Assembly (NCBI GenBank): GCA_023299885.1
Contig: JALZUS010000018.1
Coordinates: 2,646-66,645, forward strand
Direction of reading: 5' to 3'
DNA from: Bdellovibrionales bacterium
Lineage (GTDB): Bacteria; Bdellovibrionota; Bdellovibrionia; Bdellovibrionales; UBA1609
Length of the DNA stretch: 64,000 nt
A model generated the notes under the pieces. It was not told the DNA's origin, ran no database searches, and was given only the letters and a program-made list of their open reading frames with translations. How positions within the stretch are numbered: the stretch's first letter is position 1; every line of letters begins with the position of its first letter. Shown piece by piece: positions 1,792 through 50,796 of this stretch. A program made the position numbers and the translations under genes.

Positions 1792-2957
1792 TTTACGCCT
1801 ACGCAGTCCCAAAACTCCGGGAAGCTCTTATTAACCACATCTTTATCCACAATTTCTATGCGAGTACCCATGGCATTAAGTATCCCTGCTGCCATAGCCA
1901 TTCTATGATCTTTATCCGGATTAAAAACAAAACTATAATTAGACAGCTCTTTATCAGTAGACCCTTTTACAATAAAGCCATCCTCTTTAACTTCTACATC
2001 TCGGCCAATTTCCCTTAAAAGCTCAGCTGTTTTTAAAATTCGATTGGATTCTTTATAAGCTAAATGCTTTGCGCCATACAAATGACTTTCACCTTCAGCA
2101 AAAGCACATAAAACCCCTAGTACAGGAAACAAATCAGGTGACTGGCCAATATCAAAGGCAACAGCTTGAAGAGGGCTTTTAGAAACTGATAACACTTCGT
2201 CTTCTAAAGATATATCAACACCCATTAACTTAAGAATATCCACAAAGACTTTATCTGGCTGCAAGCTGTTTTCTGGAAAGCTTTTTAAACGACAGCTCCC
2301 ATGCAAAGCACCCAAAGCGGCTAAACTAAACATAGAGCTCATGTCTGGCTCCAAAGTATAGAAATGCTGCTGGGGTTTAGATTTTAAAATTGTATATTCA
2401 TTGCCTGATACTTTTATTTTCATACCCAGTTCTTTCACAAGACCTAGAGTCATATTTAAATAAGAATCAGAAACAGCTGATTTACTTTTATTAAAATGAA
2501 GATCAAAATCTAAATCCCAAGAGCTTAAGATAAGAGCCGACACAAATTGACTTGTTTTAGATGCATCTACATAAACAGCATCACCCATAGGCTTCCAACC
2601 ATTAGAATTAATTTTAAGGCTATTGCCAATAATAGCAGCCTCTACACCTAGCTGCCTTAATAATTTAACTAGGCCTTCTTGAGGCCTAGAAAAAAGCCTT
2701 TCACTACCCGTTAAAGTATATTGGCCTGGTACTCTCGACACCCTTAATGCTAAAAACCTTAAAGTTGTACCACCATCTCCGCAGTAAAACTCAGACTGAC
2801 CACCAATTAAATCTGATAAAGCTTTTTTAAGGTGAACTACATCTTCTGATCCAGAGGCACCCTGCACATAAAGTTCATTATTAAAGCTAGAAGCTATCAG
2901 CGCTCTATTTAACAAAGATTTAGAACTACTCAACTGACCTACAAAATTAAAACTCAT
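1788..2957 (-). CDS. aroA: 3-phosphoshikimate 1-carboxyvinyltransferase (EPSP synthase)
   Basis: 389-aa ORF with SSSKSLLNRALIAS near the N-terminus and KESNRI plus DHRMAMAAG near the C-terminus, all typical EPSP synthase motifs. The start overlaps the aroB stop (ATGA). Confidence 0.9.
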   Translation of the reverse strand: MSFNFVGQLSSSKSLLNRALIASSFNNELYVQGASGSEDVVHLKKALSDLIGGQSEFYCGDGGTTLRFLALRVSRVPGQYTLTGSERLFSRPQEGLVKLLRQLGVEAAIIGNSLKINSNGWKPMGDAVYVDASKTSQFVSALILSSWDLDFDLHFNKSKSAVSDSYLNMTLGLVKELGMKIKVSGNEYTILKSKPQQHFYTLEPDMSSMFSLAALGALHGSCRLKSFPENSLQPDKVFVDILKLMGVDISLEDEVLSVSKSPLQAVAFDIGQSPDLFPVLGVLCAFAEGESHLYGAKHLAYKESNRILKTAELLREIGRDVEVKEDGFIVKGSTDKELSNYSFVFNPDKDHRMAMAAGILNAMGTRIEIVDKDVVNKSFPEFWDCVGVK

Positions 2958-3958
2958 TTTTCAACCCAACCTTGGCGAATGGCCTCATCCATTATCTCGA
3001 CAAAACTTACTGGTTTGATTTCAGGCTTTAAGCTTTTATTAATAAATACAAAGTTAACCTCGTCATGGCTTACTTTTTTCTTGTCTTGTAGCAATAGATT
3101 TTTAAATAGGCCCTGAGCTAAAGGTAAAAGAGATTTTCCTTCTTCTGATTGTTGCATTGGTATTTTTCTCTCTAAAGCTTTTTTTTGAATTGATAAATCT
3201 ACATCAAATTTTTTCTCGCTCCATATTAAAGAGAAATGTAACCCCTGACCTACAGCCCACCCATGTGGTAGTCTATGCATAACTTCAAAAGCATGCCCAA
3301 GGGTATGACCCAAATTTAAAACTTGCCGGTCACCCAGCTTTTCATAAGGGTCTTTTTCAACCCATTTATATTTTTCTTCAACAAGTCCTGGAAGTTGCTC
3401 CCATAAATTTTTATCTGCATAAGTATCGATAGAAATTAAAAGCATTTTAAATGCCTCTCCCCAAGCCTGCCGTTTTAAGTTTTCGGGGTTTAACTCTAGC
3501 AACTCTTTAATGATTAGAATTTTTTCAGCTTTATAAAAACTACCTATTTGATTTTTGTAGCTACCACTATTTAAAGCCGTTTTACCACCATGTGATGAAT
3601 CTATAGCTGCTAGCCATGTTGTAGGTATGTGAATCAATGGCACGCCTCTTTTTAAGGTACTTGCTACAAACCCACCGAAATCACCAACAGTACCACCGCC
3701 CATAACTATAATTTTTGAATTTTTAAATGAAAGACTTTTAGAGGCTTCTAAAATTTTATCCATATGCTGTGGAAAAGAAGACAAATCCTTTAAAGACTCA
3801 CCGGCCTCTACAGCATAAGAGCAAGTGAAAGTATCAATAAATTGTTTTGCTTTATCAAAAGTCAGTAAGTGCTTATCGAAAATTAAAAAATGATCAGATA
3901 GTTCTTTTAGCTCGCTCAGTTGATTAATATAAAAAACATCTGAAACTAATGAGGACAT
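2954..3958 (-). CDS. aroB: 3-dehydroquinate synthase
   Basis: 334-aa ORF with the glycine-rich nucleotide loop GGGTVGDFGGFVAS and the metal-binding LNLGHTLGHAFE and HGWAV His motifs of the DHQ synthase family. Confidence 0.9.
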   Translation of the reverse strand: MSSLVSDVFYINQLSELKELSDHFLIFDKHLLTFDKAKQFIDTFTCSYAVEAGESLKDLSSFPQHMDKILEASKSLSFKNSKIIVMGGGTVGDFGGFVASTLKRGVPLIHIPTTWLAAIDSSHGGKTALNSGSYKNQIGSFYKAEKILIIKELLELNPENLKRQAWGEAFKMLLISIDTYADKNLWEQLPGLVEEKYKWVEKDPYEKLGDRQVLNLGHTLGHAFEVMHRLPHGWAVGQGLHFSLIWSEKKFDVDLSIQKKALERKIPMQQSEEGKSLLPLAQGLFKNLLLQDKKKVSHDEVNFVFINKSLKPEIKPVSFVEIMDEAIRQGWVEK

Positions 3959-3960
3959 AC

Positions 3961-4815
3961 TTAGTCACTGCCTCTTAATTTTGGATCAAGAGCATCTCTA
4001 AGCCCATCGCCCATTAAATTAAAACATAAAACTAAAACTAAAATACATAATCCAGGCATAGTAACTAACCAAGAGGCAGTCTCTAAATAGTCTTTAGAGT
4101 CTGTAAGCATAACGCCCCACTCAGGTGTTGGCGCCTGTGCGCCCATCCCTAAAAACCCTAGAGCGGCAACATTTAAAATACCATCACTAAAACCTAAAGA
4201 TGTTTGAACAATAATTGGAGCTAAGCAGTTAGGTAAAATATTAAGAACCGCTTTTCTAAAGTGACTTGCCCCAAAATTTGTATTGGCCATAACATATGAT
4301 TTTTGTTTTTCGGCCATAACAGCAGCACGGATAATCCTAATAAAGTTTGGCAAAGCAACAACACTCACAGCAATAATTCCGTTAATGAGTGATGGGCCTA
4401 ATAAAGCCACAATAACAATAGCTAATAAGATACTAGGCAATGACATAATGACATCAACTAACCTCATAATAAATGCATCTACTTTACCGCCAAAATAGCC
4501 AGCTGATACACCTAGCAACAAACCAAAAATAAGATCTAATACAACAACCATTAAGCCTACGCCAAAGGAAACTCGAGTCCCATAAATGAGGCGGCTTAAA
4601 AAGTCCCTACCTATATCATCAGTCCCTAGTAAATGTAGGTTTCCATTGGCAGCATAAGACATAGGCTGTAATTTATAGGCGTCTTCAAAAATTTCATTAG
4701 GACTATAAGGCGCCAGTAAAGGAGCAAAGATAGCCACAAATAAAAAGCAAATTAATAAAAACAAGGCTACTGTAGCCCCTTTATTTTTAGTGAAATTTTT
4801 AAAAAATGTTTTCAA
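3961..4815 (-). CDS. Dipeptide/oligopeptide ABC transporter permease (DppC/OppC-like)
   Basis: 284-aa polytopic membrane ORF. Has the LGTDDIGRDFLSRLIYG signature of the DppC/OppC N-terminal region. Lies directly downstream of the DppB-like permease. Confidence 0.85.
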   Translation of the reverse strand: MKTFFKNFTKNKGATVALFLLICFLFVAIFAPLLAPYSPNEIFEDAYKLQPMSYAANGNLHLLGTDDIGRDFLSRLIYGTRVSFGVGLMVVVLDLIFGLLLGVSAGYFGGKVDAFIMRLVDVIMSLPSILLAIVIVALLGPSLINGIIAVSVVALPNFIRIIRAAVMAEKQKSYVMANTNFGASHFRKAVLNILPNCLAPIIVQTSLGFSDGILNVAALGFLGMGAQAPTPEWGVMLTDSKDYLETASWLVTMPGLCILVLVLCFNLMGDGLRDALDPKLRGSD

Positions 4816-11699: not shown

Positions 11700-12704
11700 A
11701 TGACCCAAATCTCTAAACTGATGAAAACAAGCTTAATAGTGGCTATGTCTCTATTTTTAATAAACTGTGGAGGATCTTCAGACGAAGAAAAACTTGTTAA
11801 AGAGCATAACAGCCTAGCACAAGAAATAAATGCAATGGGTACACCAGACACTGATTGGTCTGAGGCAGAAATAGAAAGCTATATTGCTAAGCTAGATAGG
11901 CTAGATATTTTAGTTTATGAAGCCGATTCAGATCCAGCAATTATTGGGAGCTTTGGCAACGCTTCTGTTATCTCTAATAAAAGAGATAATGCGTATAGAG
12001 TATTAAGTGAAAAAAGGTCTTTATTAGACTACCGAAAAAAATCAGAAAAACTACAGACTATGCTTACTGAGTTTGCAACAGAATATGATAACACTTTAAA
12101 AGAGTTACAAACTATAGATCCAACTAGTAAAGTTGAATTGAATAGCTATATAGTTAAAATAGAAAAATCTAAAAGTAATTCAAAACAAATTAAAGAACTT
12201 CTTAATAACATTAGCAGACTACAAAACACTGACCTAAAAGATAAGACTTTATCTCTTTTAAAAAATGCTGATGATCAGCTATCTGAAATTGAAGAGGCTA
12301 TTAAAATACAGCTTAATGAGCTTTCTAAAGAAACTAGTGAAGCTGAAGTTAATACTGAAAAGAAAAGCATTGAATTGCTTTTAGCTTCTCTAGCTAAAAG
12401 TTCAATAGAACTAGGCCCATCTTACGAAAAAATTGATTCAATGAATCGAGAAGAGTTAGTAGCTTTATACAATGAGACCGTAAAGCTACAAGGCGATGTT
12501 GATATACTTGAAAATATGATTTCATCAGATGATGGGATTTCTCAGTCTAAAAAAGATAATCTATTAACTCTTTTAGATGGAGCTAAAAAGCAGTTTGAAA
12601 TTGCCGAACAGGACCTTACAGCTAAAATGTCTTCTTTAGAAATTAACACTGTTGAAGTTGATAGCCCTATTAAAATAGAGGGCTTAGAAGAAGCTGCAGA
12701 GTAA
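11700..12704 (+). CDS. Coiled-coil lipoprotein, function unknown
   Basis: 334 aa. Signal peptide ends LFLINC-GGSS (lipobox-like). Strong GGAGGA RBS. The remainder is Glu/Lys/Leu-rich and predicted helical. Confidence 0.7.
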   Translation: MTQISKLMKTSLIVAMSLFLINCGGSSDEEKLVKEHNSLAQEINAMGTPDTDWSEAEIESYIAKLDRLDILVYEADSDPAIIGSFGNASVISNKRDNAYRVLSEKRSLLDYRKKSEKLQTMLTEFATEYDNTLKELQTIDPTSKVELNSYIVKIEKSKSNSKQIKELLNNISRLQNTDLKDKTLSLLKNADDQLSEIEEAIKIQLNELSKETSEAEVNTEKKSIELLLASLAKSSIELGPSYEKIDSMNREELVALYNETVKLQGDVDILENMISSDDGISQSKKDNLLTLLDGAKKQFEIAEQDLTAKMSSLEINTVEVDSPIKIEGLEEAAE

Positions 12705-32454: not shown

Positions 32455-32491
32455 GCAAAAAAAAGAGAGCTCACTGGCTCTCTTTTTTTTA
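32455..32491. terminator. Bidirectional rho-independent terminator
   Basis: A-run, GAGAGC-TCACTG-GCTCTC, T-run, between the convergent MgtC gene and the giant Cys-rich gene. Confidence 0.8.
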
Positions 32492-32504: not shown

Positions 32505-35500
32505 TTATTTAAGCTGAAAGTTATTGTTAAGCTCTGTCCAGCCGCCGCCGCCGCCGCCGCCGCTAGTTGTGCCGCCGCCAGTCGTAGTTGTGCCACCACT
32601 AGTTGTAGTTTGTGTGCTTCCGTCATCAGCTTCACAAATATAGAACTCTACTCTGTCAGACTTATCATCATCTGTTTTTTGTAAGTGATTATGTGACCTT
32701 ACGCCTTTATCACCTTGTAAATCATAACAATGATAGTCGCCATCTTCTTTATGAATATTAACGCCCAAGTAACTTAAACCTTTCGATCCACCAACTGTTT
32801 CATCAGATATACATATCTGAGTCCTAGGGCCCGCCGTATCTGTTGGCTGGCCTCTGTCTTCTGATGAACCAGAAGGAACAGGGAAATTGTATGTAGCAAT
32901 TGGCCTATAACCACTTACTCTAGCACATGCTGCTGCATACGATAATGAACCATTACTACCACTTGCTTTAATATACTTTTCTTTACAAGTACCGTTAATT
33001 AATACCTGAGTTGAAGAACATACTGTTTCACATCTGTTTCCAACACGCTTGTATCCTGAATCACAGCTTATGTATTCACAAGCTCCTTTTACAGTGCCGT
33101 TAGCACCACAGTTAAAACCGTATGTAGAGTTTGCATCATAACTTGGAGTCGCACAGCTTTGTGGATTAGGCTTAGTCGCATCACAAGCTACTGGTAAACA
33201 TGTATTTCCAGTACCACCTGCATAACCTGTTTTACACTCACAAGATTTATTACCTACAGCAACTTCATTAGCGCCACAAGATTTAATACATGCATTACCT
33301 TCTTTAGTGTAACCAGCGCTACAGCTAAATGTACATGCACCATAACCCGTACCTGTTGCATTACAAACTCTTGAATTAACCCCATTAGTAATCACAGGAC
33401 ATCCAGAAGTATTTACTTTATTTGGACTACATATAGCTGGCAAACATTGGCTACCAACCTTTACGTGACCAGCGTTACAACTTACAAAGTCACATGAACC
33501 AAGTGCTGTGCCTGTTGAATTACAAGTCTGCGAATAAGATGCGTTACTAATTGGCCCACTACAAGATTGAGTTGTTGAACCATTTTGACCACAAATCACT
33601 TTTTGACATACTCCTGCCACCATTAAGAAGCCAGCATTACAAGATGGAGTACAAGAGCCATAAGAGCCAGAAGCACTACATGTTTTTGTACCTGATGCAT
33701 TCGCTAATCCTGGGCTACATGCTACTGCAGCAGTACCTGGGCTACATTCACGAACAACCCATGTGTAAGACGCGATACCAATTTGATTAGAAGTATCTCT
33801 AACTTGTAAATAAGCTGTATGAGTACCTACTGATAAATCCGAAGTATTCACAGAAGCAGTGAAGTTAGTTGGATTACCAGAAACTGGAGCCCAACCTGTC
33901 CATAAAGCGCCCGGAAGCCTTGTTCTGTACCCATTAATACCTACATTATCTGTACCAGAAAAACCCAAAGAAGCATTAGTTTCTATTGTTGGGTTTGATG
34001 GTGTAGATGTAAATGTAGCCACTGGCTTAGCATTATCTGTACATGCAGTTTTAGCTGCATTCACAGTATAGCCGCTAGCACAAGTAACTACAGAACAAGA
34101 ACCATAAGCTGATCCATCAGCACTACATGTTTGAGCCGTACTTGATGCGTTAGCAATCGTACATGCTGATTGGCTTAGTACGCTATTAGGCGAACAAGCA
34201 TGTATAGTCCAAGTATACGATTCACTATGAACTTTATTAGATGTATCTCTACCTTCAACAGTAATAGTATAAGTCCCTGGCGATAAATCACCAGTATTTA
34301 CAGAGCCTGCATAGCTTGCAGGAGACCCCGCTATTGCTGACCATGAACCAAAAGAACCACCTGGTAACTTAACCCTAAAATCTTTAACCCCAACATTATC
34401 AGTAATATTAAAGCCTACATTTCCTGTAGTATTTGTTGTTGGGTTTGATGGCGTCGAGTTTAATGTAACAACAGGATTTTGATTATCACCACACACGCCG
34501 TTCACGTTTGTATGACCAGGCGTTGTACAACTTGAAGCCACACATGCTGTGTTTGCAGAGTTAGGGGCATATACAACACCATCAGATGTTCCACATGTTA
34601 CCACAGTACAAGCATCATAAGCTGAACCTGCCGCATTACATGTTTGAGATGTTGTTGTCGCATTAGCAATCGTACATGTTGATGGGCTCATTACACTTTT
34701 AGGTGCACATAGTTGAATAACCCAACTGTAGTCTGCGATATTATTTTTATTAGAAGTATCTCTAACCTGTACTCTTATTTTATGAGTACCAGGCGATAAG
34801 TCACTAGAGCTTAAAGACCCAGAGAAAGACTTTGGGTTACCGCTTACAGCAGTAAATGAAGTCCAAGCAGCGCCAGGCACTAAATATCTGTAGTCTTTAA
34901 TTCCAACGTTATCTGTTAAGTTGAAACTTGCGTTACCACTTCTGTCCGTTGTTGGGTTTGATGGCGTTGAGCTAAAAGAAGCAACAGGATCTTCATCATC
35001 GATACAAGCTATACCTGCTGCATTTGAAGTGTATCCAGAATCACAACTGACTAACTCACAAGAACCTGGAGTTCCTGAAGCAGAACAAGTTGATGAACCC
35101 GATCCATTAGCAATATCACATGATGATACAGTACCAGGAACACATTCTGTTGGCTCACAAGCTGTGCCTGCAGCGTTTAATAAATAACCCGAGTTACAAT
35201 CAATAATTGTACATGGAGACCGGCCACCATTATCACAAGTAATTTGCCCTGTTCCATTTGTTATCGGACATAAAACATTTTGGAAAGATGATGCGTTACA
35301 AGAGTTTGGATCTACTGGGTCACAGTATTGGATTCCATTCTGCTCGTAACCATTAAAACAGTTTAGAGCTTGAGAGCCTGGTTCAGCTTCACAGTTACCA
35401 TACTGATTTGTATTTGTATCACAAAGCTGTACTCCTGTACCGGTTTGTGGCTCGCCAGTGCTACTACCTACATGACAGATTTGCTGAGGACCATTTGCAC

Positions 35501-36566
35501 AACCCGGAGTATGAGATTCGTATGGCAAACACACTAAACTATTATTATTAATTGCATTCGGATAGAAACCAACCGGGCAAAATCCACCAAGATTATTTGT
35601 TACCGGAGCTGTATTACATACTGGCTCACCATTAGCGTAACCAATAATATGATCGCCTGCCGGACATGTGCCGTTAAAGTCGCCTGTTGTGTTTGGTAAA
35701 ACTTCACAGTTTACAGTATTACCAACTGTATTTAATAAATACATTCCCGCTGGACAGATATGTGAAATATTATTTACTGGTAATTGATCACAAGAAGAAG
35801 ATGAAATTAAGAACTCGCCAGCACCACATGTAATATCTGAAGTACTTGGAGTAAATAGCTCTTGGCATACAGCTGCGCCTGAGGCATCAGTACCCACTAA
35901 AGCTTGTCCAGTTGAACATGATAAAGAATCTGTCGCTGACAAATCTACATCTACACATGTTGGAGTTACATTACCACTCTCATCAGTAACTATATTTACT
36001 AATTCTTGAGGGATTGGACATACCGTATTAATTGTTGGAGTTACTGGAGGAGTTACACCTGCACAAGCAGTGATTTCTTCACAAACAGCAGATCCACTAG
36101 TGTCTATTCCACGTAAGTAGTCAGTAGTGTCAGAACAAGATATGCCATTCGCTCCTGGGTGAGGTTGGCAAATAATAGCACTATTGGCTCCAATTGAACT
36201 TAAGCTTGAACCATTACTACAAAGTATACTGTCACCTGATGGTGGAAATTGACAGTTATCTAAACAGTGAGCCACGTCATTTTCAGAGTCATACTCATAT
36301 AATGTAGAACCAGCTGGGCATAAAGCTCCATTTGCCTGAGTAAGGTCAGCACATAATACAATACCTTCTAAGTCGGTACCAACAGCCACCTGATTATCTC
36401 CACAAGTATTTTGGCCAACAGCAACAACAGAACCACTACTAGAATCTAAAGTGCCAAAACGAGCCTGCGAGCAGTTATTATATATAAAAGGTATACAGAG
36501 CGCCATTGCGACGAATGCACCTAATAATGCCTGTCTTCCGTTAAACATTGCAGAAACTGCTTTCAT
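32505..36566 (-). CDS. Giant cysteine-rich modular surface lipoprotein (1353 aa), function unknown
   Basis: Signal peptide ends IPFIYNNC-SQ. GGAGG RBS 8 nt upstream. Contains about ten 2-Cys mini-repeats, eight or nine 5-Cys modules of roughly 40 aa, three Ig-like repeats, a conserved C-terminal domain and a Gly/Thr tail. Clear paralog of 36912-39092. Confidence 0.8.
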   Translation of the reverse strand: MKAVSAMFNGRQALLGAFVAMALCIPFIYNNCSQARFGTLDSSSGSVVAVGQNTCGDNQVAVGTDLEGIVLCADLTQANGALCPAGSTLYEYDSENDVAHCLDNCQFPPSGDSILCSNGSSLSSIGANSAIICQPHPGANGISCSDTTDYLRGIDTSGSAVCEEITACAGVTPPVTPTINTVCPIPQELVNIVTDESGNVTPTCVDVDLSATDSLSCSTGQALVGTDASGAAVCQELFTPSTSDITCGAGEFLISSSSCDQLPVNNISHICPAGMYLLNTVGNTVNCEVLPNTTGDFNGTCPAGDHIIGYANGEPVCNTAPVTNNLGGFCPVGFYPNAINNNSLVCLPYESHTPGCANGPQQICHVGSSTGEPQTGTGVQLCDTNTNQYGNCEAEPGSQALNCFNGYEQNGIQYCDPVDPNSCNASSFQNVLCPITNGTGQITCDNGGRSPCTIIDCNSGYLLNAAGTACEPTECVPGTVSSCDIANGSGSSTCSASGTPGSCELVSCDSGYTSNAAGIACIDDEDPVASFSSTPSNPTTDRSGNASFNLTDNVGIKDYRYLVPGAAWTSFTAVSGNPKSFSGSLSSSDLSPGTHKIRVQVRDTSNKNNIADYSWVIQLCAPKSVMSPSTCTIANATTTSQTCNAAGSAYDACTVVTCGTSDGVVYAPNSANTACVASSCTTPGHTNVNGVCGDNQNPVVTLNSTPSNPTTNTTGNVGFNITDNVGVKDFRVKLPGGSFGSWSAIAGSPASYAGSVNTGDLSPGTYTITVEGRDTSNKVHSESYTWTIHACSPNSVLSQSACTIANASSTAQTCSADGSAYGSCSVVTCASGYTVNAAKTACTDNAKPVATFTSTPSNPTIETNASLGFSGTDNVGINGYRTRLPGALWTGWAPVSGNPTNFTASVNTSDLSVGTHTAYLQVRDTSNQIGIASYTWVVRECSPGTAAVACSPGLANASGTKTCSASGSYGSCTPSCNAGFLMVAGVCQKVICGQNGSTTQSCSGPISNASYSQTCNSTGTALGSCDFVSCNAGHVKVGSQCLPAICSPNKVNTSGCPVITNGVNSRVCNATGTGYGACTFSCSAGYTKEGNACIKSCGANEVAVGNKSCECKTGYAGGTGNTCLPVACDATKPNPQSCATPSYDANSTYGFNCGANGTVKGACEYISCDSGYKRVGNRCETVCSSTQVLINGTCKEKYIKASGSNGSLSYAAACARVSGYRPIATYNFPVPSGSSEDRGQPTDTAGPRTQICISDETVGGSKGLSYLGVNIHKEDGDYHCYDLQGDKGVRSHNHLQKTDDDKSDRVEFYICEADDGSTQTTTSGGTTTTGGGTTSGGGGGGGWTELNNNFQLK
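32541..32561 (-). repeat. (GCC)7 trinucleotide repeat encoding a Gly7 run in the tail of the giant protein
   Basis: gccgccgccgccgccgccgcc read directly. It is in frame (GGC codons on the minus strand). Confidence 0.9.
33603..35000 (-). repeat. Three in-frame tandem repeats of about 435-510 bp, each an Ig-like module plus a 5-Cys module, inside the giant gene
   Basis: Protein repeats span aa 523-693, 694-843 and 844-988. Each starts D-x-x-x-PV..STPSNPT and ends after C..G[YF]......C. The DNA landmark GTTGGGTTTGATGG[CT]GT recurs near 33988, 34437 and 34950. Confidence 0.85.
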
Positions 36567-36686
36567 AAAGAATCCTCCCAGGATTTAATAATTTTCAAGA
36601 TACGTACTAGTGTTTTAATTATTACGGGACGCACCCGTACCTATATTAGACACTTACCCAATAAGTATCGGTTAAGAGTGGCTCAT

Positions 36687-36716
36687 ACTTAAACAGCTGT
36701 GAGTACAAAATGAGAC
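36687..36716 (-). promoter_or_regulatory. Bipartite motif GTCTCAT-N13-CTGTTTAAGT (minus-strand reading) upstream of the 1353-aa gene
   Basis: Plus strand reads ACTTAAACAG-N13-ATGAGAC. Both half-sites and the spacing recur identically at 39155-39184 upstream of the paralog. Confidence 0.45.
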
Positions 36717-36911
36717 AAATGTCGGAGTTTTCTAGATTTTAATCTCAGAAGTTCATCATTTTGACAGGACTTTGGGTTATCTAATTTTGAGGTTTCAAAT
36801 ATCATTTAGAGACAACATTTAAGCTAAACTGTCTCGGTTAAAGATAAACCAAAAAAAAAGACCCTTTAAAAGGATCTTTTTTTAAAAAATTTGAATTTAT
36901 TAAGATATAGA

Positions 36912-39092
36912 CTACCTTAACTGGATAGTATTAAAACCATCTATAGATGAGCTAGATCCACCGCCACCCGATGATGGTGCAGGCTGTACTACAGGCGCAG
37001 TTATTCCAAGGCTTATACATCTTCCTACGAAAGATGAGTAAAATGTACCCGGAGCACATGTAATACTTGTTGGTATTGTCCCAGGTGAAATCGTAGCTGG
37101 TGAGATTCTTTCCGAAGAACACCTGTAATGAGTGGCTCTATCAGTAGAGTCATCATCTGTTTTCTGGTTCTGATAAATTAAGTCATAACAATGATAATCA
37201 CCATTATCTTTATGCACATTCACTCCTCTAAGAGCACCACTACGGTCTACTTCAGAAGAACGACATATATCAATAGACGCATCAACAAGCGTTACTGTTG
37301 ATTGGCCATCATCTTTACCACTATTGTTATGAGGAACGTTAAAGTTTCTTGTAGATAAAGCTTTATATCCAGCTCTGCTACATGCAGTTGCATACGAGTA
37401 GTCACCATTATTTCCAGACACCCATACGTATTTATCTACACATATGTTACCTTCTAAATTCTGCAAGCTTCCACAAATTGGTACACATCTTCCATCAGAA
37501 ACTTTTTCACCAGCTTCACATGTTAAACGCACAGTCCATCTGTAGTCTGATATTGCAATATTACCAGCTGAGTCTCTTGCAATAGCTCTGAATATGTAAA
37601 GGCCAGGCTCTAGTGCAGTATAGCTTTCAGCGCCAGAAACTACTGTTCCTGCTTCAGATGTTTTACAGTCTTCTTCATCTGTCCAAATTCCATTTGGACT
37701 TCTTAGGCGACAAACTAAGTTTGTTACTCTTACTTCATCTACTGCTTTTATAGTTATATTTGCAAAGTTATCATCTGTTGATACAGCAGGTCTTTCATTA
37801 ATTGTAATAACAGGCGCTGTAGTATCTGCAGGTGTAGGAGCTGGCTCATTTGGAACTGCAACAGCCACTGACACACATAAGCCTAAACTATTTAGCTCAT
37901 AACCTACAAAACACGAACTAACTTCACAAGCCCCATAAGCCGTACCATTACTATTACAAGTTCTTGAACCTAACCCGTTATTAACTGCACACAATTGATT
38001 GCTAGATGGCGCACAGACTTGATCGTTATATGAATGTTGTAAGCACTCTAATCCATTATTAAAAATAGCATGAGGATAAGTTCCATTAGAACAAGCCTCA
38101 TTGAAGTTTCCAGTTGCGGGTAATACTTCACATATAACTTGTTCACCCGCATACCCAATAATGTATTGGCCCGGGGCACATGTACCATTAAACCTATAAG
38201 CAGAATCTTCTAAATTTTTACAACTTGGAAGACCATTAACAACACCTACAGAGTAAGAGCCCGCCGGACAAACATGTGAGTCATTTTTTTGTGGCAATGG
38301 CTTACATACTAATTCACCATTGACTGCATCTAAGAATAATCCTGGAGAACAATTTTTAGTTCCTAAATTTTGCGTGCCAGTAAAAATTGTCTGACATATA
38401 ATTTGATTTTGACTTACACCTACATAAGCTTGACCTGCTGGACATAATGCATTGATTGGAGAAAAAACTATTTCTCTACAAACAGCCTCTTTACCATTAG
38501 CACCATCAATAATATCTATAAGCTCTTCATTACCAGGGCACTCAATATTAAGTTCAGTTTCTGTGCCAGGGCAAGCCACTAGTACTTCCATTTGAGGTCT
38601 GTTATCTAAATCAAAACCTAATAAATAATGTGAAAGTGAAGAACCCACTAAGCCAACATGAGAAGGATGACTTTGGCAAATTACAGAATTATTTACACCA
38701 ACAGAAATTAAATTTCTACCATTTGGACATAATGAATTGTTTGTGTTTCCTGCAAACTCACAATTTTTTAAACATTGTGCTGTATTGATTGCACCATCAT
38801 AATCGTAAAGTGTTTCACCCACTGGGCAAAGTTGACCTTCATGTGGGATTTTTTGTGCGCAAAGGACATTACCATTAACATCCACACCTACTGCCACCTG
38901 GTTTGATAAACAAAGGTTTGTGTTTGTCTGCACAACACCTGCATTGCTTTCCGTGGCTTCTACACCAAACTGAGCTTGGCCACAGTTATTATAAACAAAC
39001 GGAATTGTTAAAGCCATCATAACAAAACCCACATACATAATTTTCTTTTTAATAAACCCTGAGTTGTTATTTAAATATGATAATTTTCTCAT
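36912..39092 (-). CDS. Cysteine-rich modular surface lipoprotein (726 aa), paralog of the 1353-aa protein
   Basis: Leader ends IPFVYNNC-GQ. The N-terminal ~400 aa and the C-terminal domain are collinear with the larger paralog. It has one Ig-like module and one 5-Cys module. The tail is GGGGSSSSIDGFNTIQLR. Confidence 0.8.
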   Translation of the reverse strand: MRKLSYLNNNSGFIKKKIMYVGFVMMALTIPFVYNNCGQAQFGVEATESNAGVVQTNTNLCLSNQVAVGVDVNGNVLCAQKIPHEGQLCPVGETLYDYDGAINTAQCLKNCEFAGNTNNSLCPNGRNLISVGVNNSVICQSHPSHVGLVGSSLSHYLLGFDLDNRPQMEVLVACPGTETELNIECPGNEELIDIIDGANGKEAVCREIVFSPINALCPAGQAYVGVSQNQIICQTIFTGTQNLGTKNCSPGLFLDAVNGELVCKPLPQKNDSHVCPAGSYSVGVVNGLPSCKNLEDSAYRFNGTCAPGQYIIGYAGEQVICEVLPATGNFNEACSNGTYPHAIFNNGLECLQHSYNDQVCAPSSNQLCAVNNGLGSRTCNSNGTAYGACEVSSCFVGYELNSLGLCVSVAVAVPNEPAPTPADTTAPVITINERPAVSTDDNFANITIKAVDEVRVTNLVCRLRSPNGIWTDEEDCKTSEAGTVVSGAESYTALEPGLYIFRAIARDSAGNIAISDYRWTVRLTCEAGEKVSDGRCVPICGSLQNLEGNICVDKYVWVSGNNGDYSYATACSRAGYKALSTRNFNVPHNNSGKDDGQSTVTLVDASIDICRSSEVDRSGALRGVNVHKDNGDYHCYDLIYQNQKTDDDSTDRATHYRCSSERISPATISPGTIPTSITCAPGTFYSSFVGRCISLGITAPVVQPAPSSGGGGSSSSIDGFNTIQLR

Positions 39093-39330: not shown

Positions 39331-40875
39331 TTGAAATACATAAAAATAGGACTGTTAGCTTTATCACTACTTACAGTTAATACAGTACAAGCCAATGTTG
39401 TGGGCGCAGACACTCATAACTTTAACCCATTAGTTAACGGCATTGATTTTGTGACTGTTAAGTCATCTGAAACTTTAGATGCAGGCTATATTAACTTAGG
39501 AGCATTTATTGATTATTCAGTAAACTCGCTACCAACATACAACCAAACTGTAGGCGGCGTCTTACAAACTGTAGAGCCTGATGACAGCTTACTCCATTTA
39601 GACCTACATGCAGCTTTAGGTTTAACGAACTGGTGGGATATTGGTATTAATATTGCCAATGTTGTATCTCAAACAACTGAGCAAGAGCTACAAAATGGTT
39701 TTTTTGCTGATAAAGGATTAACAGATGTAATGCTTTATACAAAAATTAGGTTTTTAGGTAATGATAAAGGTGGAGCCGCTTTAGCTTTATCTGTTAATTT
39801 ACCACAAACTAAAAACTCTCCATTTTTAGGTTTAAACTCGCCCGCACCATCAGATGACTACAATCAAGACCCTATAATTAATATAGAGCTTGCTGTTGAT
39901 AAAGATTTTGGTAAGTGGTCTGCCGGCGCTAACGTTGGTTACAGAATGCGTAATCCAGGAAAAAACAAATCATCTATAGGAATTTTCAATGAAAGCAGCG
40001 CTGATGATGATGAAGTTACTCTTAACCCAGTCGGTGAGCAAATTTTAGCTTCTGCGGCACTTGCTTACAAAATGACTGATAAAACAAGAATTATTGGTGA
40101 GTACTTTACAAGTTTTTTAGCCGGCGACCCTGAAAACGTAGGCGGAACATCTAGCGGTACATCAAGCACTGAAGAGCAACTCTCTAAAACATTCACTACT
40201 GGAGAACTCTTACTTGGTTTAAGACATGACATTAAGCCCAACCTTCATTTGCATGCAGGCGCATCAACAGCTCTACAAGAGGGTACATCATCTCCAGACT
40301 ATAGAGTTTATGGTGGGGTTAACTACAGATTTGGTAAGCTTTGGGGTGGAGCCGTAGCAGCGGCAGCAGTACCGGTTGAAGAAATCGTAGAAGAAGTTAT
40401 CGAAGAGCCTTATGTAGAAGAGCCAGTAATAGAAGAGCCTATTGTTCAAGAGCCAATAGCTCCGGCACAACCAATTATTGCTGATGCTAATGACACTAAT
40501 GTTTTTGGCAATGCTCCATCACAAAAAGTTGAGATCTACAGCTTTAGAAACCTAAACTTCAGAACAAACTCTGCAAAGATTCCTTCTGAATTTAGAGCAA
40601 GGCTTTCTGAGCTGACTCAATATGTGAACCAATCGCCTGTTTTCCAAAGACTTATTGTACATGGACATACAGATTCTCGTGGTTCTAGCCAATACAATGC
40701 AGCTTTATCACAGCGTCGCGCCGATATGGTAAGAAGAGCCCTGACACAGGTTTATGGCCTACCCGCTGAAAAGCTTTCATCCATAGGCCATGGCGAAGAC
40801 CAACCTATTGCTGATAACGAAACTCCAGATGGCTTATTATCAAACCGTCGTGTTGAGTTTGAAATTTTCAGATAA
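39331..40875 (+). CDS. OmpA-family outer-membrane protein: N-terminal beta-barrel, acidic Glu/Pro linker, C-terminal OmpA peptidoglycan-binding domain
   Basis: I prefer the TTG at 39331, preceded by AAGGAG with a 7-nt spacer, giving the leader LKYIKIGLLALSLLTVNTVQA. The C-terminus carries NFRTNSAKI...HGHTDSRGS..YNAALSQRRA...NRRVEFEI (OmpA_C). The ORF-track start at 39214 adds 39 non-signal residues. Confidence 0.8.
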   Translation: MKYIKIGLLALSLLTVNTVQANVVGADTHNFNPLVNGIDFVTVKSSETLDAGYINLGAFIDYSVNSLPTYNQTVGGVLQTVEPDDSLLHLDLHAALGLTNWWDIGINIANVVSQTTEQELQNGFFADKGLTDVMLYTKIRFLGNDKGGAALALSVNLPQTKNSPFLGLNSPAPSDDYNQDPIINIELAVDKDFGKWSAGANVGYRMRNPGKNKSSIGIFNESSADDDEVTLNPVGEQILASAALAYKMTDKTRIIGEYFTSFLAGDPENVGGTSSGTSSTEEQLSKTFTTGELLLGLRHDIKPNLHLHAGASTALQEGTSSPDYRVYGGVNYRFGKLWGGAVAAAAVPVEEIVEEVIEEPYVEEPVIEEPIVQEPIAPAQPIIADANDTNVFGNAPSQKVEIYSFRNLNFRTNSAKIPSEFRARLSELTQYVNQSPVFQRLIVHGHTDSRGSSQYNAALSQRRADMVRRALTQVYGLPAEKLSSIGHGEDQPIADNETPDGLLSNRRVEFEIFR

Positions 40876-40944: not shown

Positions 40945-41601
40945 ATGGAAAATAACCAAGAAATTTTAGTTAAGCACCTAAGCCAACCGCCCTCTTTAAG
41001 AAATGAAGAGTGGCACCACAAAGCTTTCGAGCTTATGGTCGACGCCAATGTTACAATAGAGAATGACGATCCTAAAGCAGGCCCCGATGGCATGCCTTAC
41101 ATGCTCGCTTCAATAAAAATAGACTCTAAAGAGCCCTGTCAAAAACTTTGCAGGTGGCTTTATGAAAAAGGAATTGGCCTTGTCGTTAACCCTCAAAAAC
41201 AAGATCCTGATTTTGTATTTTCTTATGGAATGATTTGGAGCTTTTTAGCTACAAATAGTTTCTTACCTAAAACTGCAGCTAGCGAAGAAGAAAAAAAAGA
41301 TATCGAAGTTACTCCTGGACAGCAATACTACTTTGGCGATTTAACTGATGATATTATCCCAAAAACCCCACGTGACTTAATAAAAGAATTTTTTAAGCAA
41401 TCAAAAATAATAACACCACAAGTAAAGCTTATGAGTGCTGACCAACAGTCTTTTGATATTTGTTTTTCTAGAGAAAGTCTTAACGGCCTTACAGAAAAAG
41501 AAGAAGCCAATCTTATGGAAAAATTATACTGGTTTATGCCCAGGCATTATTCTTTAGCTATTGTAACTGCCAAAGGCTTACCTGAGTTTTTAAACCTTTA
41601 A
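40945..41601 (+). CDS. Hypothetical protein
   Basis: 218-aa ORF with coding-like composition and no recognised motif. Confidence 0.55.
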   Translation: MENNQEILVKHLSQPPSLRNEEWHHKAFELMVDANVTIENDDPKAGPDGMPYMLASIKIDSKEPCQKLCRWLYEKGIGLVVNPQKQDPDFVFSYGMIWSFLATNSFLPKTAASEEEKKDIEVTPGQQYYFGDLTDDIIPKTPRDLIKEFFKQSKIITPQVKLMSADQQSFDICFSRESLNGLTEKEEANLMEKLYWFMPRHYSLAIVTAKGLPEFLNL

Positions 41602-46502: not shown

Positions 46503-46608
46503 AAAAAAGTGGGGCCGGCCGGTCATATCACATAGGTCTTTTGCTACCGTTGCTTCCTTCCGGACCTGGCGGAATTCACAAAAGCGTCTATTGTATGGGA
46601 CCAACCCC
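46503..46608 (-). ncRNA. ffs: Signal recognition particle RNA (4.5S, small type)
   Basis: The minus strand reads GGGGUUGGUCCC...CCGCCAGGUCCGGAAGGAAGCAACGGUAGC...GACCGGCCGGCCCC followed by a U-run. The conserved domain IV motif AGGUCCGGAAGGAAGCA and 5'/3' pairing are present. It lies directly upstream of dnaX. Confidence 0.88.
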
Positions 46609-50445: not shown

Positions 50446-50796
50446 GGGGGCGATACGGCTTCGACGTGGGTACCGAAGCTTAAGGAGCATGCAGGGGCGC
50501 AAGAGGTCCTCTTTAAAAACTTGCACAATTTTAATCGGCAACGATTTACAATTAGCTGCATAGTATTATGTAGCCATGGATCATTGGGGTGGTAGCGCCC
50601 TTTGTGAAATGTCACTTTAGTTACCTCGACCTAGTGGATTCTTCGAGACAATAGGTTTAAATAAATTTTGAGGAAGGGTTTATCAAAGGGTGTTCGTCCT
50701 CGCTGGTAAGCCGACATGAAATGGCAGAACTAAGCATGTAGCCGCCTTAATGTGAACGACTTGCGGACGCGGGTTCAATTCCCGCCGCCTCCACCA
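50446..50796 (+). ncRNA. ssrA: tmRNA (transfer-messenger RNA)
   Basis: 5' GGGGGCGAUACGGCUUCGACG and GCAUGC. Tag ORF GGC AAC GAU UUA CAA UUA GCU GCA UAG (50537-50563) encodes GNDLQLAA. 3' T-arm and acceptor GGACGCGGGUUCAAUUCCCGCCGCCUCCACCA. Confidence 0.93.

Follow-up and report, generated by a model that had tools for sequence, protein, structure and literature searches.

A tandem pair of cysteine-rich, lipoprotein-like modular proteins with exchangeable C-terminal domains in Bdellovibrionota

How Bdellovibrio-like predators recognize and hold their prey is only partly understood. The known systems are the mosaic adhesive trimer (MAT) fibres and the MIDAS lipoprotein adhesins; elsewhere, the Lig proteins of Leptospira are surface proteins with immunoglobulin-like (Ig-like) repeats. 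The MAT proteins of B. bacteriovorus are phage-like trimeric fibres with variable tips, which are displayed on the surface and implicated in prey recognition (PMC10769870). The MIDAS-family proteins Bd0875 and Bd1483 of B. bacteriovorus are lipobox-anchored adhesins with single vWA/MIDAS domains, and the C-terminus of Bd0875 protrudes at the predator-prey junction (PMC11003981). OmpL47 is reported to be a surface-exposed protein of Leptospira (PMC2698987). The present analysis concerns two neighbouring genes, here called A and B, of a Bdellovibrionales bacterium (assembly GCA_023299885.1, contig JALZUS010000018.1); they lie within a stretch of 64,000 nucleotides, referred to below as the window. 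The two lie in tandem as paralogues and belong to a small family. The locus defines a rare, unnamed family whose apparent design, a disulfide-stapled stalk with swappable heads, is the architecture expected of recognition proteins.

A and B are firmly predicted to be exported, cysteine-paired, all-beta modular proteins with a Sec-type signal. We lean towards reading them as stalks, anchored at the N-terminus and stapled by disulfides, on which exchangeable binding heads would be presented in an adhesin-like or recognition role. A conserved stalk plan with at least five unrelated C-terminal heads among the relatives fits adhesins or recognition proteins, and this agrees with the adhesin-like design proposed in an earlier reading of the window, made without database searches (the sequence-only reading). 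Neither hairpin array nor six-Cys module nor head has a significant match in Pfam, NCBIfam, PHROGs, PDB sequences or Foldseek searches of PDB, and the sequence-only reading had likewise been unable to place them. Both Cys-rich modules, which are reusable, and the head domain are absent from Pfam, NCBIfam and PDB. What is new are the unnamed modules, the head, the Asn-Cys (N-C) box at the end of the signal, and a rare swappable-head family so far seen only in Bdellovibrionota; the modular, Cys-rich, lipoprotein-like "hypothetical adhesin" is already familiar as a kind of protein.

Two paralogues and their recurring modules

Both open reading frames (ORFs) were found at the coordinates given in the sequence-only reading, and its description of tandem paralogues with shared N- and C-terminal regions was borne out. 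By BLASTP the first 426 residues are 38% identical (E 4e-75), and a second collinear match covers the C-terminal part (~32% identity, E 1e-29). A and B are the nearest relatives of one another, with 39-41% identity versus at most 33% to other members, and share head, tail and an additional pair of Cys, which points to a lineage-specific duplication. They had been said to differ only in the number of internal modules. This does not hold, since A further contains a linker rich in T/G, an EGF-like unit of the C-x-C type and two small additional hairpins, and B an additional Cys hairpin past the C-terminal domain; nor is a protein of 1353 residues "giant". Cysteine makes up 6.7% of A (90 residues) and 5.4% of B (39 residues). 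With the signal peptide and box Cys removed, the mature chains hold 88 and 38 Cys; these even numbers, and the joint gain and loss of Cys pairs described below, support the disulfide stapling that had been suggested.

The mature N-terminus carries, over ~300 residues, an array of Cys-bracketed units of 13-22 residues with a period of ~28-30 residues, typically C-P-x-G-x-x-[LIVY]-x-G-x4-G-x3-C. About ten such mini-repeats had been counted by eye, which is correct for A (ten) and for B (nine, plus one Cys-less unit). In a 13-member alignment the hairpin Cys are invariant save for two exceptions, each of them a pair. Both unit-4 Cys are gone in B and in the related protein P0002 (P- and L-numbers are labels for related proteins and other loci in this analysis), and the additional pair, C105/C168 of A, is present in A, B and P0002 only. 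Gain and loss in pairs is what disulfide partners predict, thus suggesting that the hairpin Cys are such partners. An AlphaFold2 (AF2) model from a 12-sequence alignment (predicted local distance difference test, pLDDT, 72) folds each Cys-bracketed unit as a two-stranded beta-hairpin. With a hidden Markov model (HMM) built from hairpins 5, 7 and 8, the untrained hairpins 3 and 6 scored above the best of 200 shuffles and the remaining hairpins were weaker; the repeat is old and divergent.

The N-terminal-region profile had no match among PDB sequences, and a Foldseek search of PDB with the model of the hairpin array and first module found none either (best E 0.33, template-modelling score, TM, <=0.14). 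Against BFVD the sole Foldseek match at E<=0.001, an Edafosvirus orphan (TM 0.12, root-mean-square deviation, rmsd, 32 Å), was rejected as repeat-pattern noise. The hairpin also occurs as a regular ~29-residue tandem repeat in a Myxococcota protein (P0027/P0157, residues ~505-710 and ~1060-1275) that further contains collagen-like repeats and ends in a fibrinogen-like YCDxxxxGGGW domain. Another large protein, P0058 (residues 755-1010), has it as a tandem repeat too. No Pfam or NCBIfam model covers the hairpin arrays of these two proteins. Their occurrence suggests that the hairpin is a wider, unnamed repeat placed before binding domains.

The second module had been described as a five-Cys unit with eight or nine copies in A and one in B. 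The copy number stands (nine and one), and the module was found to have six Cys, the sixth lying 7-10 residues upstream of the five. It is 46-60 residues long, and the spacing C-x7-C-x10-C-x9-C-x4-C-x10-C occurs in 189 of 319 instances drawn from 122 proteins. Scans of A and B with Pfam and NCBIfam at E<=1 gave no match on the hairpin or six-Cys regions; the Myxococcus-type cysteine-rich repeat TIGR02232 was not matched, and TIGR03769 (E 0.043) was the only NCBIfam hit. The six-Cys module alone is found in more than 100 other lipoprotein-like proteins. Arrays of up to ~18-26 copies occur in the LVIVD-repeat proteins P0006, P0008, P0010 and P0016, in the RCC1-like proteins P0023, P0026 and P0073, and in others. 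Eight module-array proteins were scanned, P0006, P0016, P0023 and P0073 among them, and in none of the eight did Pfam or NCBIfam match the module; no name was attached to the two module-array protein clusters that were looked up.

The third module had been recognized as Ig-like, with three copies in A and one in B, and this was confirmed. The A copies are ~50% identical among themselves, and the B copy is ~30% identical to them. The AF2 model of full-length B (five sequences) has a pLDDT of 47.5, and its only confidently modelled part is an Ig-like beta-sandwich at residues 425-523 (pLDDT 70-88). Foldseek matched this part to PKD, S-layer HPI, CARDB and BT4663 Y_Y_Y-type Ig folds, including PKD 6aem (TMt 0.74, rmsd 3.1), 8cka (E 8e-5) and the BT4663 Ig domain. 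Pfam Y_Y_Y reached 25.0 bits on A, with a cut-off of 26.6, and did not match B. The Ig-like modules of the relatives, homologous to those of A and B by local HMM, pass NF047446 (OmpL47-type; 72.6 and 68.1 bits in P0007 and P0017, cut-off 40) and Big_13. As a bacterial Ig-like domain the module is ordinary; its counterparts in the relatives resemble OmpL47 and Big_13.

Family distribution and C-terminal heads

In a word-indexed search of 5.8 billion proteins, five proteins were found, two of them A and B themselves. An exhaustive HMMER search with the N-terminal profile among 1.84 billion representatives returned 336 proteins at E<=1e-3; most of these match by the six-Cys module only, and about a dozen are further representatives with the full hairpin region. 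The named relatives are hypothetical proteins from metagenome-assembled genomes (MAGs) of Bdellovibrionaceae or Pseudobdellovibrionaceae. A GTDB scan of 185,579 species genomes gave one locus, in a Bdellovibrio sp. MAG, with patterns so narrow that absence from cultured Bdellovibrio and like organisms is not proven. The LysS protein of the window shares 70-72% identity with MAG proteins from "Bdellovibrionales bacterium" and 68% with a Halobacteriovoraceae MAG protein. The single GTDB match, the named relatives and the LysS identity all agree with a Bdellovibrionota origin. Scans of A, B and the isolated head with Pfam, NCBIfam and PHROGs gave nothing above threshold, and literature searches found no account of a Cys-rich lipoprotein family from Bdellovibrio.

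An end-to-end alignment joins A and B to 11 further members (local HMM E 2e-127 and 6.5e-145 for A and B). Both have the region that defines the family, ~300 residues with 18-20 Cys at invariant positions, which follows an [FY]-x-N-C signal and precedes six-Cys and Ig-like modules. Full-length members are built as HP - M(1-3) - [Ig - M]n - C-terminal region, where HP is the hairpin array, M the six-Cys module and Ig the Ig-like module; P0007 lacks the first module. A comparison of copy number across relatives, which the sequence-only reading had proposed, gave one to nine six-Cys modules (none in P0078) and zero to three Ig-like modules. This variation agrees with the evolution by module amplification that had been put forward. 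In A, a DNA super-repeat of 450/513 nucleotides (Ig plus six-Cys module) is present in three copies of 67-79% identity, which indicates that amplification is real but old and not, as had been thought, ongoing.

The stalk leads to at least five unrelated heads across the full-length relatives. The head of A and B also occurs in P0002, in P0011 and in an ORF of locus L001. A second type is found in P0005 and P0007, and a third in P0013, P0017 and P0018, of which P0017 has DUF5648 and P0018 a match below threshold. P0015 has a fourth type, with a weak Gly_rich_2 match, and P0004 a fifth. The A and B heads (127-137 residues) are 46% identical in a trimmed alignment, and at E<=10 neither Pfam, searched with the isolated heads of the window proteins, nor PDB sequences gave any match. 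A word-indexed search with the head alignment recovered only an 86-residue fragment of A and missed known carriers, so that it is insensitive for this domain. Metagenome contigs scanned for head and N-terminal motifs yielded no relatives; the sequences of the 12-member alignment differ too much for search patterns to be derived from them.

At the C-terminus of A, B and P0002 a linker rich in Gly/Ser leads to N-x-[FI]-[QN]-L-[KR]-COOH (NNFQLK, NTIQLR and QNFNLR, respectively; window 32508-32540 and 36915-36945, locus L005 ~4230-4273). No other ORF of the window or of the compared loci has this ending. The conserved tail may serve at the C-terminus as a tag for recognition or sorting. The A-tail stretch GGGGGGGW-T-E-L was considered as a fibrinogen-like YCDxxxxGGGW motif and rejected, as it gave no NF040941 match and is absent from B and P0002. 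Enrichment of N-glycosylation sequons was also dropped, being marginal in A (31 observed versus 23±4 expected) and absent in B.

Table 1. Features of genes A and B and of adjacent sequences in the window (HP, hairpin array; M, six-Cys module; Ig, Ig-like module).
Feature	Position	Strand	Description	Basis
Gene A	32505..36566	(-)	1353 aa; HP-M-M-M-Ig-M-Ig-M-Ig-M-M-M-M-head-tail	ORF; architecture by local HMMs
A signal peptide	36471..36566	(-)	Residues 1-32; ends in lipobox-like I-Y-N-N-C32	Sequence; Cys invariant in family
A hairpin array	35529..36404	(-)	Residues 55-346; 10 Cys-bracketed units (55-72, 83-101, 116-133, 144-162, 183-204, 217-234, 247-259, 271-287, 301-317, 330-346) and extra pair C105/C168	Cys pattern, alignment, AF2, HMM
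A six-Cys modules 1-3	35004..35501	(-)	Residues 356-521 (356-415, 423-470, 475-521)	Cys pattern
A Ig-like module 1	34710..35003	(-)	Residues 522-619	Repeat comparison; sub-threshold Y_Y_Y match 580-617
A six-Cys module 4 and small hairpin	34491..34709	(-)	Residues 620-692 (module 620-675, hairpin 680-692)	Cys pattern
A Ig-like module 2	34197..34490	(-)	Residues 693-790	Repeat comparison
A six-Cys module 5	34041..34196	(-)	Residues 791-842	Cys pattern
A Ig-like module 3	33747..34040	(-)	Residues 843-940	Repeat comparison
A six-Cys modules 6-9 and EGF-like C-x-C unit	33030..33746	(-)	Residues 941-1179 (modules 941-987, 992-1041, 1046-1093, 1128-1179; EGF-like unit 1097-1123)	Cys pattern
A head	32622..33029	(-)	Residues 1180-1315; 4 Cys; motifs G-D-Y-H-C-Y-D and Q-K-T-D-D-D-x-x-D-R	Alignment, local HMM
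A tail	32508..32621	(-)	Residues 1316-1353; Thr/Gly-rich linker, (GGC)n-encoded Gly run, ends in N-N-F-Q-L-K	Sequence
Terminator-like hairpin	32457..32490	Strand-neutral	A-run on one side, T-run on the other; between A and convergent MgtC-family gene	
Gene B	36912..39092	(-)	726 aa; HP-M-Ig-head-hairpin-tail	ORF
B signal peptide	38982..39092	(-)	Residues 1-37; ends in V-Y-N-N-C37	Sequence
B hairpin array	38043..38912	(-)	Residues 61-350; 9 units with Cys pair, unit 4 without both Cys; extra pair C111/C174	Alignment; AF2 pLDDT 72
B six-Cys module	37875..38015	(-)	Residues 360-406; single copy	Cys pattern
B Ig-like module	37521..37832	(-)	Residues 421-524	AF2 pLDDT 70-88; Foldseek
B head	37107..37487	(-)	Residues 536-662; homologous to A head	Alignment, local HMM
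B end	36915..37106	(-)	Residues 663-726; Cys hairpin 679-692, Pro/Gly/Ser linker, tail ending in N-T-I-Q-L-R	Sequence
Terminator-like hairpin and T-run	36853..36883	(-)	Directly 3' of B	
OmpA-type gene	39331..40875	(+)	514 aa; C-terminal OmpA domain, outer-membrane-type; divergent from B	Pfam OmpA 66 bits

Proposed anchoring, genomic context and alternative readings

The N-termini of A and B have the positively charged n-region and uncharged hydrophobic core of lipoproteins right before the Cys, KKKIMYVGFVMMALTIPFVYNN preceding it in B and GRQALLGAFVAMALCIPFIYNN in A. The layout is identical in all relatives, and in every family member a hydrophobic core of 15-20 residues is followed by [FY]-[QTN]-N-C-[GSA]. 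The box Cys is invariant across the family, the relatives having mostly F-Q-N-C or else Y-T-N-C. Among signal-like N-termini of related proteins, 64 of 96 end in N-C and 26 of 96 have a canonical [GAS]-C at the equal position. Asn at -1 is also present in unrelated lipoprotein-like ORFs (LFLIN-C-GGSSDEE at window 11700-12704, FLIAN-C-SPP at 2271-3404 of locus L001). Ala at +4, a possible signal peptidase I (SPase I) site, is not conserved family-wide, unlike N-C (for example, NCSKLQ, NCGRVG, NCSGGN, NCAVPT). Since the Cys is kept and the +4 Ala is not, and since canonical boxes stand at the equal position and Asn at -1 recurs in unrelated ORFs, the N-C box is probably a lineage-typical lipobox variant, the Cys of which would be lipidated. 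Of the earlier designation of A and B as lipoproteins, the export signal and the invariant Cys are borne out; the Y-N-N-C sequence fails the PROSITE lipobox rule at -1.

A literature search found no paper describing the FQNC box and returned only work on vasopressin. Leptospira lipoboxes such as F-F-Q-S-C and F-L-G-N-C resemble F-Q-N-C and may offer a lead. Standard lipoprotein rules and predictors would miss N-C box proteins; if the box truly directs lipidation or sorting, the lipoprotein inventories of the phylum are systematically under-called.

As anchored stalks, A and B would be lipidated at the box Cys through an Lgt/LspA-type variant lipobox, fixing the N-terminus in the outer membrane. 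Hairpins, six-Cys and Ig modules would then form a rigid, protease-resistant stalk of adjustable length, which would keep the C-terminal domain off the membrane as a distal ligand-binding head, and diversification could proceed by head swapping and changes of stalk length. A prey-recognition role is plausible, and one may speculate that the ligand in a Bdellovibrio-like predator is a prey-surface or envelope component. It was also considered that the hairpin array and six-Cys module represent two new disulfide-stapled folds in a monomeric, length-adjustable, Bdellovibrionota-specific surface fibre, with a lineage-specific "FQNC box" anchor that also marks dozens of other module-bearing proteins, and with exchangeable heads acting as prey-recognition determinants in a second system independent of MAT fibres; in this full form the proposal is unlikely.

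Several observations weigh against the proteins being surface-anchored stalks with binding heads. The family is known from sequence and predicted structure alone, and sequence does not tell surface exposure from periplasmic orientation. The terms "abundant" and "surface-exposed" of the sequence-only reading, and its proposal of prey recognition, found no support in the analysis. Predation itself is deduced from taxonomy, as the organism is an uncultured MAG. The lipobox [LVI]-[ASTVI]-[GAS]-C (PROSITE PS51257-type) is violated by Asn at -1, and A and B also carry Tyr at -3 and Asn at -2. The head was not modelled by AF2 (pLDDT ~25) and matches nothing, so that a role in binding is assigned to it by position only. 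A nonsense codon found in the A head in a sister sample (see below) would, if real, mean that the head is dispensable in that population. Finally, the neighbouring genes differ by sub-clade, being OmpA-type, trypsin-like or two-component.

The OmpA-type gene adjoins B, P0002 and the distant P0004; its orthologues are 82% identical at the P0002 locus and 36% at the P0004 locus (L005 183-1727 and L004 8203-9705, respectively). The N-terminal ~400 residues of the window protein have no Pfam match. At the P0005 and P0011 loci a gene for a secreted trypsin-like protease lies instead directly upstream on the same strand (58% identical between the loci; L006 118-981, L008 7078-7950), and the P0018 locus has a two-component system as neighbour. 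The context indicates the cell envelope, but neighbours that vary among sub-clades reveal no single partner or functional link. Downstream of the OmpA-type gene, a 218-residue ORF (window 40945-41601, plus strand) belongs to no Pfam family and forms a single-member cluster. The window also contains a tmRNA gene (50446-50796, plus strand; tag peptide GNDLQLAA) and a small signal recognition particle RNA gene (46509-46607, minus strand).

There is a minor possibility that A and B, as lipoproteins of the outer membrane, face the periplasm and serve the structure of the envelope, for example as spacers or tethers acting with the OmpA-domain neighbour and peptidoglycan. Gram-negative lipoproteins face the periplasm by default, and disulfides form in that compartment. 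The divergent gene with an OmpA C-terminal domain is kept by B, P0002 and P0004, among which the OmpA proteins are 36-82% identical and the Cys-rich proteins only ~31%. However, other sub-clades do without the OmpA neighbour, swapping among at least five unrelated C-terminal domains is unexpected of a tether, and 700-1350 residues of extended beta modules seem, by rough estimate, too long for the periplasm. It is improbable that SPase I cleaves behind N-C-[GS]-[QR]-A and that A and B are secreted in soluble form, as effectors or toxins set free in the medium or the prey. In A, B and several relatives, the [GS]-[QR]-A that comes after the Cys looks like an SPase I site with small residues at -3/-1, and canonical signal peptidase II does not favour Asn at -1; yet it is N-C and not the +4 Ala that is conserved family-wide, and a Cys discarded with the signal should not be invariant. 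The canonical lipoboxes at the equal position in related proteins speak against secretion as well, and the Pfam, NCBIfam and PHROGs scans found no catalytic or toxin domain.

It is quite improbable that the modules are divergent forms of named eukaryote-type Cys-rich families (EGF/cEGF, Sushi/CCP, TNFR, ephrin-receptor-like), in which case none of the domains would be new. In favour of this, the six-Cys module has in its C-terminal half, C-x4-C-[ND]-x-G-[YF]-x-L-x3-G-x-C, a likeness to the "CNxGY" sub-motif of cEGF and Sushi, and C-P-x-G-x-Y recalls the TNFR and GCC2_GCC3 repeats. Short cEGF matches were obtained in relatives, of 16.7 and 28.6 bits over ~15 residues only. A profile of 60 six-Cys sequences reached Sushi (E 0.015) and factor IX EGF (E 1.3) in PDB, these matches being insignificant and covering half a module. 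Against this, no EGF-like or cEGF HMM (PF00008, PF12662) covers the whole module, and A and B gave no match at E<=1 in the Pfam and NCBIfam scans of these regions. The gap between Cys4 and Cys5 is x4 in the canonical 7-10-9-4-10 spacing and not the C-x-C of EGF, whose Cys pair 1-3, 2-4 and 5-6; the hairpin unit has two Cys and not four to six, and Foldseek found no PDB match for the hairpin array with the first module.

Decay of one or both genes, or an assembly artefact behind the long ORFs, is highly improbable. A sister-sample contig (ERZ23499647), 99.93% identical to the window over 7.3 kb, has G->T at A codon 1260, turning GGA into TGA (window ~32787-32789; L002 8292), and a run of (GGC)n in the poly-Gly linker that is 3 nucleotides shorter (window 32541-32563, read as (GCC)n on the plus strand; L002 ~8534). 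Both differences could be real variation or consensus errors, and the nonsense change costs only the last 94 residues. In the window both ORFs are intact, on an independent 96.8-kb contig (a metagenome scaffold), and all Cys are conserved across relatives of 26-41% identity. Ribosome-binding sites and terminators are present: a strong Shine-Dalgarno sequence, GGGAGGA, lies 7 nucleotides 5' of the A ATG, and a Shine-Dalgarno-like AAGGGA lies 5' of the B ATG, the long N-terminus of B being kept in P0002. With a terminator-like hairpin after B and another after A, the genes look like separate transcription units; the hairpin next to the MgtC-family gene could act in both directions.

Comparison with described systems

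At the level of domains, the six-Cys module resembles EGF-like/cEGF and Sushi (CCP) modules in its small size (~45 residues), its six Cys (EGF), its two beta-hairpins and the C-N-x-G-Y-x-L-x-G sub-motif, and differs from them in Cys spacing and in giving no significant HMM or PDB-profile match. The LVIVD and RCC1 module-array proteins (P0006, P0008, P0010, P0016, P0023 and P0073) have in common with A and B the six-Cys module and an N-terminus with FQNC or a canonical lipobox, but lack the N-terminal hairpin region and the A/B head.

The Ig-repeat proteins of Leptospira recall the family through the OmpL47-type domain of P0007 and P0017 and through a lipoprotein-like signal followed by tandem Ig-like domains. 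They have neither Cys-hairpin array nor six-Cys modules nor head, and A and B reach no Ig-family threshold. Bd0875 and Bd1483 belong to the same phylum as A and B. Like these, they carry a lipobox Cys in the signal at the N-terminus and are proposed to be anchored in the outer membrane, with the C-terminal part protruding to contact prey. There is no relation in sequence or fold: A and B are long Cys-rich stalks with a non-canonical lipobox, recognized so far in sequence data only.

The MAT fibres are not homologous to A and B, which have no PHROGs match, are all-beta in AF2 models except for the signal helix, and consist of disulfide-stapled modules of monomer type. What the family has in common with the MAT fibres is a conserved elongated body, diversified chimeric C-terminal tips and several paralogues.

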